A stretch of 64,000 bases of DNA from Eledone cirrhosa (Eukaryota). Positions 51,917 through 57,841 of the stretch are shown one piece after another. The stretch lies in the NCBI GenBank assembly GCA_964016885.1, contig OZ024761.1, positions 14,012,001-14,076,000 on the forward strand, read 5' to 3'. Both the position numbers and the translations under genes were made by a program. A model generated the notes under the pieces. The model searched no databases. It was not told where the DNA came from and saw only the letters and a program-made list of their open reading frames with translations. The first letter of the stretch is position 1; each line of letters begins with the position of its first letter.

Positions 51917-52025
51917 TATTCTACAATATCACGTAAATTTGTTGAAGTCATGAATGATTACAACACAACACAGATAGACTACAGAGACCGGTGTAAAGCT
52001 CGCATAAAAAGACAGATGGAGATAA
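51917..52025 (+). CDS. STX1A: Syntaxin-1 Hc-helix exon, alternative copy A ('6a'), 109 nt, phase 0/1
   Basis: gacag acceptor and A|GTAAGG donor. Translates [36 protein letters not shown](T) with no stop or frameshift. Not shown in this frame by the ORF track. Confidence 0.93.
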
Positions 52026-53013
52026 GTAAGGTTCTACAATAGATTTCACTCATGTCCTTCTCTAATACTTCTATTTTCATTCCTTCTTCACTCGTTCTTC
52101 ACTACTTATTCAATATGATTCACTTGTTCTTCTCGTCAGTTTTTTCTTTTCTTTTCTTTTCCTTTTCTTCTCCTTTTCTTCTTTTTCTTCTTCTTCTTGC
52201 TCTCGTCTTCACTTCACATAGATGTAGTCTTACTTTCTTTTATCTTTCTAGTGTAGATGGATGTCTCAGTGTGTGTGTGTGTGTGTGTGTGTGTGTGTGT
52301 GTGCATGCTCATGTATGTGTGTGTGCGTATGTGAGTGTCTGGATGTATGCGTGTATTTATGTGTGCATGTGTGTGTGCATGTGTGTGTGTGGATGTGTGT
52401 GTGTGTGCATGCTCGTGTATGTGTGCGTGCGTTTGTGAGTGTGTGGATGTATGCGTGTATTTATGTGTGCATGTGTGTGTGCATGTGTGTGTGTGTGGAT
52501 GTGAGTGTGTGTGTGCATGTGTGAGTGTGTGCGTCTGTATGCATGTGTGTGGATATGTATATATATATGATGCATGTATATAGTGATATTTGATACACAT
52601 ATCTGGTGCATCTCTTTGTATGTGTGTATGTGTGTATGTATGTATGTGTGTGTGTGTATATAAAAGTATATATATGTGCCTGTATATGTACATATGTGGG
52701 TGTATGTACATATGTGCGTGTATGTACATGTGTATGTGTCTGTGTATATGTACATGTGTCTGCGTGTGTATGGTGTCACATGCCCATAGAAAATTAACAA
52801 TAATCATTAAATACTTCGTTATTAGTTCCAGCTGTCAGAACACTCGGAGTTCAAACTCTGCCAGGGTCAACTCCATGGATCAATAAATAAAGTAGCAGTC
52901 CAGCGTGGATAGGAGGATGAGGGGGGTAGAAGATTCGTTGCAATTGTTAAAGAGCCAGACAAAATATTTTGCATAATCTTAGCTGGTTCTGTGCATTCTG
53001 AGTTCAAATCCTG

Positions 53014-53742
53014 CTTTCTTCTGCCAGGAGTTGTGACTAACAGATAGTATCAGCAATGGAAAGACCAATGGAAACATTGTTTCCTTGGTCTGGTCTGATG
53101 ATCAGCTCCTTTCTTCTGCCAGGAATTGTGACCGACAGATTGTATCAGCAATGGAAAGACCAATGGAAACATTGTTTCATTGGTTTGATCTGATGATCAG
53201 CCCCTTTCTTCTGCCAGGAATTGTGACTGACAGATAGTATCAGCAATGGAAAGACCAATGGAAACATTGTTTCATTGGTCTGATCTGATGATCAGCTCCT
53301 TTCTTCTGCCAGGAATTGTGACTAACAGAGAGTATCAGCAATGGAAAGACCAATGGAAACATTGTTTCATTGGTCTGGTCTGATGATCAGCTCCTTTCTT
53401 CTGCCAGGAATTGTGACTAACAGATAGTATCAGCAATGGAAAGACCAATGGAAACATTGTTTCATTGGTCTGATCTGATGATCAGCTCCTTTCTTCTGCC
53501 AGGAATTGTGACTAACAGATAGTATCAGCAATGGAAAGACCAATGGAAACATTGTTTCATTGGTCTGGTCTGATGATCAGCTCCTTTCTTCTGCCAGGAA
53601 TTGTGACTAACAGATAGTATCAGCAATGGAAACATTGTTTCATTGGTCTGATCTGATGATCAGCTCCTTTCTTCTGCCAGGAATTGTGACTGACAGATAG
53701 TATCAGCAATGGAAAGACCAATGGAAACATTGTTTCCTTGGT
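53014..53742. repeat. 95-nt tandem repeat (~8 units) with an internal hairpin
   Basis: Unit starts at 53014, 53109, 53204. Hairpin agaccaatggaaaca/tgtttcattggtct. Single-copy relative at ~1745-1820 (-). Confidence 0.9.
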
Positions 53743-53994
53743 TCAAATACCTAAAATAATTATTTTCAGTAGTCTCCAAACAAGACAAAATCGAAAATAT
53801 ATTAGTAAAATCCATGAAGGGAATCAGTCTAAAAAATTTGGGATAGATTCCTCTCATTCTCTGTACTGGATGAGGTCATACACACACATGAACACAAAAC
53901 AGACGCATAGACACACATTATACATATATATACACGGGTGTGTGTGTGTATACTTTGATAGAAGTGTGTGTTTGTGCATATATGAGAGTGTCTG

Positions 53995-54285
53995 TATGCA
54001 TATATGTGTGCGTGCATGTATGAGGGTCTGTGTGTGTATGTGCATATATGTGTGCGTGCATGTATGAGGGTCTGTGTGTGTATGTGCATATATGTGTGCG
54101 TGCATGTATGAGGGTCTGTGTGTGTATGTGCATATATGTGTGTGTGCATGTATGAGGGTCTGTGTGTGTATGTGCATATATGTGTGCGTGCATGTATGAG
54201 GGTCTGTGTGTGTATGTGCATATATGTGTGCGTGCATGTATGAGGGTCTGTGTGTGTATGTGCATATATGTGTGTGTGCATGTAT
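53995..54285. repeat. 44-nt tandem repeat (~7 units), each containing TGCATG
   Basis: Unit tgcatatatgtgtgcgtgcatgtatgagggtctgtgtgtgtatg. Confidence 0.9.
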
Positions 54286-55195
54286 GTCAGTCTTTTTTTA
54301 CACTTTATGCTTTTTCTTCTTTTTTCTTCACTTTTTCTATTTTCACAAAATATTCCTTCATGATAATGTGTGTGTGTGTATATATATATATATATATATA
54401 TATATATATATATATATATATATATATATATATATACACACACGTGTGTGTGCATATATAGCTATATAGAGATTTATATGCATGTGTGTATATATATATG
54501 TGTGTGCCTGTATGTATATACACATATGCATCTGGCATCATCAACCAACATGTAGACACATAGACTCACACGTGACTAGCTGTGAATGTTACACATCTTT
54601 TATACTAATATATATATGTGAATGCTGACACATGCATGCCTCTCTCTCTCTCACACACATACACACACTCAAACAAAAGTACACACACACGCACAAACAC
54701 CTTACACTACTTTCATTCATCATCATTTCATATTTTCTCCTAGAATAACTGACCATTTTATATATATATATATTATATATATATATATATATATATATAC
54801 ATATATATATATATTCATCATCTCATATTTTCTTCAAGAATAACTGACCATTTTATATATATATATATATATATATATATATATATATATATATTCATCA
54901 TCTCATATTTTCTTCAAGAATAATTGACCATTTTTTTAATATATATATATATATATATATATATATTATATATATATTCATCATCATCTCATATTTTCTC
55001 CAAGAATAACTGACCATTATATATATATATATATATATATATATATATATATTCATCATCATCTCATGTTTTCTTCAAGAATAATTGACCGTTATATATA
55101 TATATATATATATGTATATATATATATACGCGTAAACATATCATCATTCACACGATATTTCATCATAGGCTACCAATTGTTTCATGTTTCAACAG

Positions 55196-55212
55196 CGAAG
55201 TTATGTAAGGGG
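55196..55212 (+). other. Candidate microexon (17 nt, or 9 nt with the upstream donor) between the two alternative exons
   Basis: ttgtttcatgtttcaacag|CGAAGTTATGTAAGGGG|gtaagt; alternative donor gtaagg at 55205. Splice-site motifs only, no transcript evidence. Confidence 0.2.
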
Positions 55213-56665
55213 GTAAGTGTTTAGCCGTGGTTGTGCTTTGGGATTACAGATATGTGTATATATATATATATATATACACATATGAATATTCTCACAGTCT
55301 CTTCACACTTCCATTTGTAGCGGTCACCAGCATCCTGTCCAGTTCCAGGCCCTGTCCTTCCATCTATCCCCCATCTATATCAGAGCCACTTCTGTTGTTT
55401 TTTTTTTTATGTTTTACTTATTTCTTTCATTTAATCTTATATATTTGTTTTTCATTTTCTTCACCAATTTTTTTTGAAAGTTTTCTTACAAAGAAAAAAA
55501 AAAACAAATACTTCAATGTTTTATTTTGGCCATTGGCTATAGTTGTTGTTGTTGTTGTTTTTATTATTATTATTATTATTATTATTATTATTATTATTAT
55601 TCACGTTCTTTGTTCTACTGACCTGGTTTAATTTCTGCATATACATATATACATATATATATATATATATATGTATGTGTGTATAGATATATATATGTGT
55701 ATATATATATATATATATAGATGTATATGTATATATATATATCTATATATGTATATATGCGTGTGTGTATATAAATATGTATATATATTTATATATATAT
55801 ATAATATATATATATACATATATAGTATGCATTTGTTAATGTAATGTATTATTTGTATGTAATATATATGTGTGTGCACACACACATATATATATATGTA
55901 TATATATATATATGTATATATACATATATATATATGTGTGCACACACACATATATATATATGTATATATATATATATATATATATATATATATATATATA
56001 TATATATACACATACATTTGTATATATATATATATATATATATATATATATATATACACATACATTTGTATCACAAAAGAGGTATGTTTTGTTTTTTCTT
56101 TATTTTTTCATTATTCTTCTTTGTATTTTTTTTTTAATTTGAAACTTCATTAATATCTTCAGTTTAATACATTTAATTATAAATATATAGGTGTGTGAGT
56201 GTATATATATAAATATATATATATATACATACATGCATACATATATACATAGTGAAGCACGCAATTATATATTCTTAATCCAGGATTTGTTTTGATTAAT
56301 TTTCAACTAGTTTTTAACTCCTTCCCTTGTTACTTGTTCACCTGATTTCATTGCCCCCACCCACTGCCCTACCAATATTTCCTCCCCTATGTATGTGTGG
56401 AGTGTATATATATATATATATATATTTATATATATTTATATATATATATATATGTATATATATGTATATATATATGTGTGTGTGTGTGAATGTTTATATA
56501 TATATATATGTATATATATATATATATCTATATATATATATATGAATGTATGTATATATATATATATATATATATATATGAATGTATGTATATATATATA
56601 TATATATATATATATATATATATATGAATGTATGTATATATATATATATATATATATATATATAT

Positions 56666-57084
56666 ATAAAATATTAAACAAATAATGAATAAACAATGAA
56701 ACAGTTCCTTATATTAAACAAAAAAAGTTCATTATTTAACGATCGTTTCTAGGATATATATGTGTTAGAATTGGCATGCATATTCAACAGATCTATGTAC
56801 AAAATTATACAAAATTATACAAACTATCAAGATTAAATATACATACCAACACATATATACGCCGTCTTCAGAAATAATCTGAAGACGGCGTATATATGTG
56901 TTGGTATGTATATTTAATCTTGATAGTTTGTATAATTTTGTATAATTTTGTACATAGATCTGTTGAATATGCATGCCAATTCTAACACATATATATCCTA
57001 GAAACGATCGTTAAATAATGAACTTTTTTTGTTTAATATAAGGAACTGTTTCATTGTTTATTCATTATTTGTTTAATATTTTAT
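56666..57084. mobile_element. Perfect palindrome, 207-bp arms with a 5-nt loop (Penelope-like inverted remnant)
   Basis: 56666-56872 is the reverse complement of 56878-57084 with no mismatch found by eye. Loop AATAA; sits beside (TA)n. Confidence 0.8.
56732..56877 (-). ncRNA. Type I hammerhead motif with a very long helix II, in the left arm of the 207-bp palindrome
   Basis: Minus strand TTATTT-CTGAAGA-(~115-nt stem-loop, tatatatgtgttgg/ctaacacatatata)-GAAA-CGATCG-TT-AAATAA: 6-bp helix I and palindromic ACGATCGT helix III. Confidence 0.6.
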
Positions 57085-57732
57085 CTTGACTCTGTATACC
57101 GTTTATCTTTCACCGAAAGTGATTTTTCATTACATCTCTTCTTTCCATGATATCCGGAATACATTGAGTTCTTCATACGGATTGGACACTACCGTAAACT
57201 CTTGGTAGATTTATCTACATATATATATATATATATATATATATATATGAATGTATGTATATATATGTATATATATATATATATATATATGAATGTATGT
57301 ATATATATGTATGTATATATATGTATATATATATATATATATATGAATGTATGTATATATATGTATATATATATATAAATGTATGTATATATATATATAT
57401 ATATATATATATATATATATATATATATGAATATATATATATATATATATATATATATATATATGAATATATATATATATATATATATATATATATATAT
57501 ATGAATATATATATATATATATATATATATATGAATGTACATATATATATATATATATATATATATATATATATATATTTATGTGTGTGAATGTACATAC
57601 ATATATATATATATATAATGTGTGTACATTTTTATTTTTCAATTCATCCTCTCCTTCCTTTCCCCCCACCCACCCCACCCCTTAGTGCTCTCCTTTTCCT
57701 TTTTTTTCATTCTCCTTTCTCTCCTGCTCCAG

Positions 57733-57841
57733 CACGCCACTCTTTCCCGTAAGTTTGTCGAGGTTATGAATGATTACAACACATGTCAGATAGACTACAG
57801 AGAGAGATGCAAGGGCCGTATACAGCGCCAATTGGAGATCA
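57733..57841 (+). CDS. STX1A: Syntaxin-1 Hc-helix exon, alternative copy B ('6b'), 109 nt, phase 0/1
   Basis: Long pyrimidine tract + ccag acceptor and A|GTAAGA donor. Translates [36 protein letters not shown](T), close to vertebrate [37 protein letters not shown]. Contained in ORF 57622..57870. Confidence 0.96.

Follow-up and report, generated by a model that had tools for sequence, protein, structure and literature searches.

An octopus syntaxin-1 gene with two alternative Hc-helix exons: one gene likely making two syntaxins that would differ in how easily they open for vesicle fusion

Vesicle priming has one of its main control points in the opening of closed syntaxin-1, a step understood from engineered mutants. 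A 64,000-nt stretch of the genome of the octopus Eledone cirrhosa (GCA_964016885.1, contig OZ024761.1; the window hereafter) contains two homologous versions of the exon encoding Hc, the autoinhibitory helix, one behind the other. This raises the question of whether both belong to one gene, how they are used, and what a choice between them would mean for the protein. The locus is almost certainly a single syntaxin-1 gene with a mutually exclusive pair of Hc exons (6a and 6b). As an explanation of the whole we favour, with moderate confidence, that each productive mRNA takes one of the two and that the resulting syntaxins differ in their opening.

Two Hc exons in one gene

A reading of the sequence alone had proposed two intact exons (Table 1) of equal length and phase that differ at eight residues, and both points hold. 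Each copy is preceded by AG and followed by GT(AAG), is in phase 0/1 and has an open frame; the two are identical at 79 of 109 nt (72%) and differ at 8 of 36 residues, exactly those listed before (6a/6b: Y/H120, S/A121, I/L123, T/C137, D/E143, A/G147, K/Q150 and M/L153, in a numbering that agrees with rat syntaxin-1A chains). Both match the Pfam Syntaxin profile PF00804 over the same positions, 95-130 (E 2e-8 and 9e-10), and the gene that carries them has a SNARE motif and a C-terminal membrane anchor (exons 8 and 9, and anchor exons downstream of the window), including two alternative membrane-anchor last exons, likewise downstream. Separate paralogues or a misassembly, a case that had been named as fatal to the proposal, are rejected: a search of the organism's own 3.0-Gb genome for the Hc exon returned these two places and none elsewhere, and exons 4, 5, 7, 8 and 9 are each single-copy within a 264-kb stretch, so 6a and 6b do not come from two paralogous genes.

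Table 1. Syntaxin-1 features in the window; exon numbers follow the human STX1A layout
Feature	Position	Strand	Remarks
Syntaxin-1 exon 4	33292..33366	+	75 nt; most of helix Hb; 24/25 residues by tblastn against an Octopus isoform; AG/GT borders
Syntaxin-1 exon 5	36612..36685	+	74 nt; common upstream exon; donor joins 6a or 6b
Exon 6a	51917..52025	+	109 nt; the derived copy, with Y120, I123 and M153; encodes residues 120-155 (rat numbering) of helix Hc
6a/6b intervening intron	52026..57732	+	5,707 nt; GT-AG; rich in microsatellites
Exon 6b	57733..57841	+	109 nt; second option for helix Hc; the ancestral-like copy, with A121 and an additional C137

Spliced to the real flanking exons, both 5-6a-7 and 5-6b-7 remain open through exon 9 and agree with the public Octopus isoforms at 167 of 168 residues. 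The premature stops foreseen for the wrong combinations are there as well: 5-6a-6b-7 meets one inside 6b, 89 nt upstream of the next junction, and 5-7, with both exons out, meets one 30 nt into exon 7. Joining 6a to 6b shifts the frame and produces a stop in the window and in 10/10 other two-exon loci, an arrangement that would be compatible with nonsense-mediated decay (NMD) clearing the mis-spliced forms.

Mutually exclusive use is borne out by RNA contigs of close relatives and by annotated isoform pairs. The RNA runs were picked using 6a, and their tissue labels are coded. Runs X16 and X3, from close relatives, each yielded two 168-nt contigs, one of which is exon 5-6b-exon 7 with both junctions read, the other exon 5-6a with exon 7 assigned from length only; X21 and X12 gave long contigs with exon 5-6a. 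The 3' end of exon 5 is the loose end that precedes both 6a and 6b. The proposed junction check was thus answered in part: the 5-6a splice is found in contigs of 4/4 runs and 5-6b-7 in 2/4, with only 6a and no exon 6b seen in contigs of X21 (likely the window's own species) and X12, which is not counted as absence of 6b. Contig depths (58.1 vs 24.2 and 9.7 vs 3.2) are a poor measure and are not taken as expression ratios. No loose end joining 6a to 6b was found in the four runs, in contigs that drop rare forms; since only exon 6b with its flanks served as the alignment target, this joint was checked via loose ends alone.

The 6a-7 junction can be followed letter by letter in transcript contigs of other animals (L023, L024) and occurs in full-length proteins. 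Exactly one 36-residue module is present in 189 of the 190 retrieved proteins carrying both flanking motifs, and six isoform pairs differ only within the exon, by 8 residues in Octopus, 12 in Mizuhopecten, 12 in Pecten/Argopecten, 11 in Dreissena, 11 in Lineus and 15 in Watersipora; the Patella isoforms show 9 differences in the exon plus a different last exon. The octopus value is below those of most other pairs (11-15). Bridging junctions 5-6b (X16, X3) and 6a-7, a frame-shifting join, and a shared length, phase and structural element are the features by which PMC5740500 recognises mutually exclusive exons (MXEs).

Age, spread and selection

Mollusc syntaxins of the YSTISRK form had been put forward as a sign that the pair is ancient. 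The form exists: the squid crystal structure 1S94 has an Hc exon beginning YSTISRK and is the 6a form (35/36 identical), whereas the cDNAs of Aplysia and Lymnaea contain 6b. The antiquity stood, and the extent proved older and wider than supposed. The order 6a then 6b recurs in 10/11 genomic loci of other animals, all exons having 109 nt and AG/GT borders, and both Hc forms are also found in clams, limpets, a ribbon worm (nemertean) and a moss animal (bryozoan); a flatworm and an annelid probably carry the pair too. A tree on position-defined exons (9 loci, 36 columns) unites the first exons in one clade (97/95), and a duplication confined to octopus is rejected (octopus 6a+6b clade, p-AU 0.016); support for 6b as a separate clade is weak (85/74). 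Since the first exons form one clade and an octopus-only duplication is rejected, the pair is old; a single ancient origin is highly probable, and the duplication likely dates to early Spiralia. Exon 6b is ancestral-like with an invariant extra cysteine, and 6a is the derived copy. Among the proteins retrieved, heterobranch snails, oysters and mussels have 6b only and parasitic flatworms 6a only, which, if it reflects real loss, means that either form can suffice.

Between 6a and 6b synonymous divergence is saturated (pS 0.85, pN 0.12). The pN/pS check, run for each copy, gave pN 0.05-0.15 against saturated pS among 6a orthologues and 0.05-0.11 among six 6b orthologues, in support of the claim that both copies would be under purifying selection. 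Heavy synonymous divergence outside the core was likewise recovered (4/17 synonymous codons identical there vs 10/10 in the core; permutation p 0.002 for an interval picked post hoc), and octopus 6a appears to have shifted toward 6b, as gene conversion would give.

Four positions (120, 123, 137 and 153) tell the first exon from the second in 9/9 loci, and R142, C145, R151 and I155 are invariant across both, with K146 in 47/48. The cysteines behave as predicted, C145 being present in both copies and C137 in 24/24 6b rows, 0/24 6a rows and 0/7 outgroup and rotifer rows; it is kept even in the fast-evolving bryozoan-type 6b. Position 150 is not a fixed switch, since heterobranch 6b has K150 too and the 6a of several bivalves and limpets has Q150.

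The choice of exon and its likely consequence

The two exons would compete as ordinary GT-AG exons, with trans-acting splicing factors deciding between them according to cell type or stage, and wrong combinations would be cleared by NMD. Steric exclusion, which calls for less than 50 nt from donor to branch point, was rejected: the intervening intron spans 478-5,707 nt across loci and the AG-free zone before 6b 13-179 nt, and in the window the 5,707-nt intron is too long for it. U2/U12 incompatibility was rejected as well, every donor being an ordinary GT. Within 250-nt flanks, Dscam-type pairing left no 8-mer common to at least four of the nine loci and no consistent duplex excess (8 shuffles each), and nothing consistent emerged for Fox, QKI, Nova, PTB and CELF motifs. 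Two hairpins near 6b, considered as conserved control elements, are dispersed repeats. A branch-point-like CTAAT lies about 40 nt past the 6a donor, with an AG within 80 nt; other loci are without it.

What the choice would change follows from the position of the exon. In the AlphaFold model of the public 6a isoform, whose Habc lies within 0.8-0.9 A rmsd of squid and rat, it covers residues 123-158 of a predicted helix 114-159; the model is open, with a low pTM (0.45) and an rmsd of 12 A to closed syntaxin, and therefore cannot separate the isoforms. The linker is held by contacts to Hc, among which PMC10895456 names R142, K146 and residue 150, and R151 and I155 are given as the Munc13 site in PMC8728020 and PMC13398699. 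These known key residues are identical in 6a and 6b, position 150 apart, so tuning is inferred from neighbouring changes. By helical-wheel estimate only, M/L153 and K/Q150 would flank R142 and K146, which hold the linker, and I/L123 and T or A/C137 would flank R151 and I155, a second-shell effect. The two proteins likely differ in how firmly the Habc bundle latches linker and SNARE motif, and the ease with which Munc13 opens Munc18-bound syntaxin would shift accordingly. This tuning of the closed state, read from sequence, is somewhat better than an even bet.

A pair that is real and ancient could instead serve another end, with C137 or the Hc surface acting in redox, nitrosylation, acylation or the binding of a channel or Habc partner and the closed-state equilibrium little changed. 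The strict confinement of C137 to 6b fits this, as do the outward-facing positions 143 and 147 (helical-wheel estimate) and the statement in a review that the closed form's binding to Munc18 is disrupted once C145 is S-nitrosylated (PMC4655263), but C137 is 8 helix residues from C145, out of reach of a disulfide, and most fixed changes (Y/H120, I/L123, M/L153) are of packing type. We consider this unlikely, though worth keeping in mind.

It is quite improbable that the two proteins are near-equivalent, the exons being kept by an early cell-type split of splicing control or by unproductive splicing that sets the syntaxin level. The shared key residues, the lineages with one form only and the gene-conversion-like move of octopus 6a toward 6b in the core agree with it, yet the residues diagnostic of each copy are kept in several phyla, and lineage after lineage would not have arrived at the same four fixed differences by neutral divergence. 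An artefact, whether a misassembly, a duplicated haplotype, a second gene or a pseudo-exon that is dead, could draw on the repeat-rich intron and on 6b being unseen in X21. It is largely refuted and barely credible: the copies are only 72% identical with saturated synonymous sites, and sit between single flanking exons; splicing of each is seen in relatives, and 10 further loci repeat their order.

Known parallels and meaning

Vertebrate syntaxin-3A/3B also stems from alternative exons duplicated inside a single syntaxin gene; there the exchange affects the anchor and part of the SNARE motif and leaves Hc as it is. SNAP-25a/b resembles 6a/6b in that an internal exon of a single-copy neuronal t-SNARE gene was tandemly duplicated long ago, with mutually exclusive forms and few residue changes (9, vs 8-15 in 6a/6b); it differs in being another SNARE in another lineage, whereas the exon here is the autoinhibitory Hc helix. 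Switching of vertebrate Snap25 exons 5a/5b is reported to be developmental and functional (PMC2581893, PMC3104942); the two systems are set side by side on exon structure and sequence, regulation and function being established for SNAP-25 only. C. elegans unc-64A/B and mouse Stx2 have alternative last exons, neuronal vs non-neuronal and under CELF control (PMC4946901). Like the octopus gene, which also has two anchor last exons, unc-64 is an alternatively spliced syntaxin-1 orthologue, but unc-64A/B and Stx2 swap the C-terminal anchor and 6a/6b an internal regulatory helix. The MXE clusters and tandem duplicated exon substitutions of PMC5740500 and PMC9741552 are likewise equal-length, helix-embedded homologous exons, not a multiple of three and very old; these catalogues cover human, fly and worm only, and their main texts contain no STX (PMC5740500) and no syntaxin or STX (PMC9741552). 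Both isoforms are already deposited in automatic annotations as X1/X2 (for example Octopus sinensis XP_029650843.1 and XP_029650844.1; Watersipora XP_067935029.1 and XP_067935030.1), in records that carry no statement on the pair's homology, age or function. Literature searches turned up no description of the 6a/6b switch; papers from the 1990s on the cloning of squid syntaxin could mention isoforms.

A wider reading, which is tentative as a whole, is of a Spiralia-wide switch that predates the mollusc-flatworm split, and perhaps the rotifer split, and supplies different cell types with a tight-gated or a loose-gated syntaxin-1 (fast synapses as against other secretion, for instance), splicing doing what paralogues do in vertebrates. 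The pair would join the SNARE-end and anchor exons in a small code, and lineages would have dropped one form, 6b in parasitic flatworms and 6a in heterobranch snails. If true, classic squid and Aplysia syntaxin work used different isoforms unawares.

The squid structure (6a) differs from the Aplysia and Lymnaea cDNAs (6b) in splice form and not merely in species. Two natural versions of the latch-holding helix, each with its own fixed residues, have been kept across several phyla; they offer a ready-made pair for finding the second-shell residues that set the closed-open balance, and are a candidate source of diversity among the presynapses of mollusc and annelid neurons.

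The exon pair and its splicing

The single syntaxin-1 gene of Eledone cirrhosa contains a real pair of expressed, ancient and mutually exclusive exons, 6a and 6b, for the Hc helix of the autoinhibitory Habc bundle. Both copies correspond to residues 120-155 of rat syntaxin-1A and to positions 95-130 of the Pfam Syntaxin profile; they are identical at 79 of 109 nucleotides and differ at eight of 36 residues, the same eight that the sequence-only reading had listed. A search of the whole 3.0-Gb genome with the exon returned two matches, 6a and 6b, and every other internal exon occurs once in the 264 kb searched. 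Exons 5-9 are open in frame with either copy, and 167 of the resulting 168 residues equal those of public Octopus vulgaris/sinensis isoforms. The sole mismatch is Leu109 in exon 5, a position taken by His in the proteins of other octopuses, of squid and of many molluscs; it is either a species change or an assembly error. Exon 7 is followed by a GC-AG intron, and two alternative last exons each encode a lysine pair, a membrane anchor and a stop, much like those of C. elegans unc-64A/B; paired last exons differ likewise between isoforms in snails, oyster, limpet and nemerteans.

Features of the syntaxin-1 gene and of related loci (G000:C22, contig OZ024761.1; window at G000:C22:14012001-14076000; exon numbering as in human STX1A)
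Feature	Position	Strand	Remarks
Exon 2	near G000:C22:13922179		upstream of window
Exon 3	near G000:C22:14002421		upstream of window
Exon 4	window 33292-33366	+	
Exon 5	window 36612-36685	+	
Exon 6a	window 51917-52025	+	109 nt; AG before, GTAAG after
Exon 6b	window 57733-57841	+	109 nt; AG before, GTAAG after
Exon 7	G000:C22:14087683-14087756		downstream of window; GC donor at 14087757
Exon 8	G000:C22:14091089-14091226		downstream of window
Exon 9	G000:C22:14093301-14093411		downstream of window
Alternative last exons	start G000:C22:14105445 and 14147089		downstream of window; membrane anchor
Inverted repeat	window 56666-57084		perfect, 207 bp, 5-nt loop
MITE-like element	window 58047-58170		short, palindromic
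Dispersed repeat	window ~29065 and ~41824	-	short reading frame
Duplicated exon 9, metagenome loci	L025:16476-16741; L027:9087-9374		

Among 24 sequencing runs matched by 6a, four (X3, X12, X16 and X21) were compared with 6b and the flanking exons; the splicing evidence consists of contigs, not reads, from runs preselected with 6a, with coded tissue labels and an RNA status that is an automatic guess supported by the spliced junctions. Runs X16 and X3, which represent two organisms and differ from the window at three places in 112 nt, contain two 168-nt contigs apiece. One reads directly from the end of exon 5 through 6b into the start of exon 7; the other passes from exon 5 into 6a, and its remaining length fits 29 nt of exon 7. 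Such a two-contig bubble is the pattern expected from one-or-other splicing. X21, which shares its organism code with runs that contain the full window and is identical to the window at the end of exon 5, and X12 each have a single long contig joining exon 5 to 6a, with no 6b in their contigs. No contig loose end in the four runs shows a 6a-6b joint.

Occurrence, age and direction of the duplication

The 6a and 6b isoforms are already present in automatic annotations, and both Hc forms turn up in three protein searches (30 matches; the best 120 of 1,463; 60 matches) and two cluster look-ups. Isoform pairs with scaffolds of the same length differ solely within the exon in Octopus (8 changes), Mizuhopecten (12), Pecten/Argopecten (12), Dreissena (11), the nemertean Lineus longissimus (11) and the bryozoan Watersipora subatra (15). 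Patella isoforms have nine changes in the exon and also a different last exon, and the Mya 6a gene model is partial. Both flanking motifs are found in 190 of 259 fetched proteins, and 189 of these have one 36-residue module, the lone exception being a read-through gene model. In the Macrostomum model P0153, 6a continues into part of a 6b-like exon, suggesting that this free-living flatworm has both. All named carriers of 6a are spiralian in two of the searches (30 and 60 matches); being word-based, they could overlook a diverged duplicate in other animals. Among the fetched proteins, at the level of annotation, heterobranch snails, oysters and mussels show 6b only and parasitic flatworms 6a only.

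A metagenome scan yielded 13 loci, two of them 6a-bearing transcripts and the other 11 pieces of genomic DNA. In ten of these pieces 6b comes after 6a at a distance of 478-1,138 nt, and every exon is 109 nt long with AG/GT borders; the eleventh ends about 900 nt past 6a. Merging near-duplicates (L029/L031, L033/L034) leaves eight independent two-exon loci, by sequence likeness one bivalve-like, two bryozoan-like and the others annelid- or nemertean-like. In a tree labelled by exon position (the window, eight loci and seven outgroup and rotifer rows, omitting near-duplicates L031 and L034, and L030, without 6b), the nine first exons come together as a single clade (97/95), and the rotifer rows group with 6a (88/91). 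A tree forcing octopus 6a and 6b together is rejected (p-AU 0.016), and with it an octopus-only duplication. A larger tree agrees (6a 92/97; 6b 85/74), in part circularly, its named proteins being labelled by sequence. The simplest reading is a single duplication predating the separation of these phyla, which split in the Cambrian or earlier. P0036, a read-through of a 1-kb contig, has a rotifer-like Hc exon followed by a strongly diverged 36-residue one with matching borders, which may reflect a duplication reaching the base of Spiralia or an independent event.

Compared with insect, centipede, nematomorph and fish outgroups, 6b retains H120, L123, E143, G147, Q150 and L153 and has gained A121 and C137; the derived copy is 6a. 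In all nine position-labelled loci the two can be told apart at positions 120, 123, 137 and 153. Synonymous sites are saturated in every cross-species comparison, and dN/dS can be stated no more exactly than as far below 1. Relative to octopus, pN ranges over 0.05-0.15 in 11 6a exons and over 0.05-0.11 in six of eight 6b exons; the two bryozoan-like 6b exons are fast, at 0.25 and 0.31. In bryozoan-type loci L033-L035 and Watersipora protein P0190, 6b has diverged much faster than 6a, and C137, C145, R151 and I155 are kept. The core of octopus 6a and 6b is identical at 10/10 synonymous codons versus 4/17 outside (permutation p 0.002, for a region picked after inspection), and cephalopod 6a has V128, T136 and R144, as in octopus 6b. 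Gene conversion between the octopus copies is possible; given a weaker identical core (7/8) in two other loci, constraint on codons or on a splicing enhancer may also play a part.

How one exon might exclude the other

Steric exclusion is ruled out by 6a-6b introns of 478-5,707 nt, and U2/U12 incompatibility by the ordinary GT at all donors. In the 250-nt flanks of nine loci, a search for conserved intronic words or base pairing came up empty, a weak test with eight shuffles each. The conserved 109-nt length gives an early stop in both wrong products: inclusion of both exons places it 89 nt upstream of the 6b/7 junction, skipping of both 30 nt inside exon 7, with more junctions downstream in each. 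According to PMC5740500, such lengths occur in 60% of human clusters and joining reads in just 22% of those, so the choice does not have to be locked by frame alone. Most likely, two ordinary exons would compete while splicing factors steer the choice, with decay of wrong products as a putative back-up.

An inverted repeat lies 650 nt upstream of 6b; related copies occur three more times in 364 kb, marking it as a dispersed hairpin element. The MITE-like element, 200 nt downstream of 6b, has many related copies nearby, and a dispersed repeat whose copies share one short reading frame, on the minus strand at the two sites listed, occurs several times in and beyond the window. Exon 9, the C-terminal half of the SNARE motif, is single in octopus and tandemly duplicated in two metagenome loci, L025 and L027; with just 44 and 66 nt between them, these copies are likely to be sterically exclusive. 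Lineus isoforms differ at those exon 9 residues.

Possible roles of the two Hc helices

The exon covers residues 123-158 within a helix predicted at 114-159, and the 6a form is that of the squid Habc crystal structure. In rat, Hc contacts hold the linker helix, E166 bridging R142 and K146 and L165 lying near K146 and residue 150 (PMC10895456, written there as N150; the chain has Q). The Munc13 MUN site is placed at R151 and I155 (PMC8728020, PMC13398699), and C145 nitrosylation is reported to lower closed-form Munc18 binding (PMC4655263). R142, C145, K146 (nearly invariant), R151 and I155 are common to both copies, and the 6a/6b differences lie next to them. A helical-wheel projection puts 153 and 150 on the side of R142/K146 and 123 and 137 on that of R151/I155, whereas 120 belongs to the hydrophobic stripe and 143 and 147 point outward; most non-cephalopod 6a exons have G144, adjoining C145.

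Changes placed beside unchanged key residues fit fine-tuning of the closed state better than an on/off change, and 6a and 6b would then differ in how readily closed syntaxin opens. The copies might instead differ through modification of C137 or another partner of Hc; the strongest clue to that reading is C137, invariant in 6b. A search of main-text literature, with few subscription journals covered, turned up no description of the pair, which is of the kind known from SNAP-25a/b.
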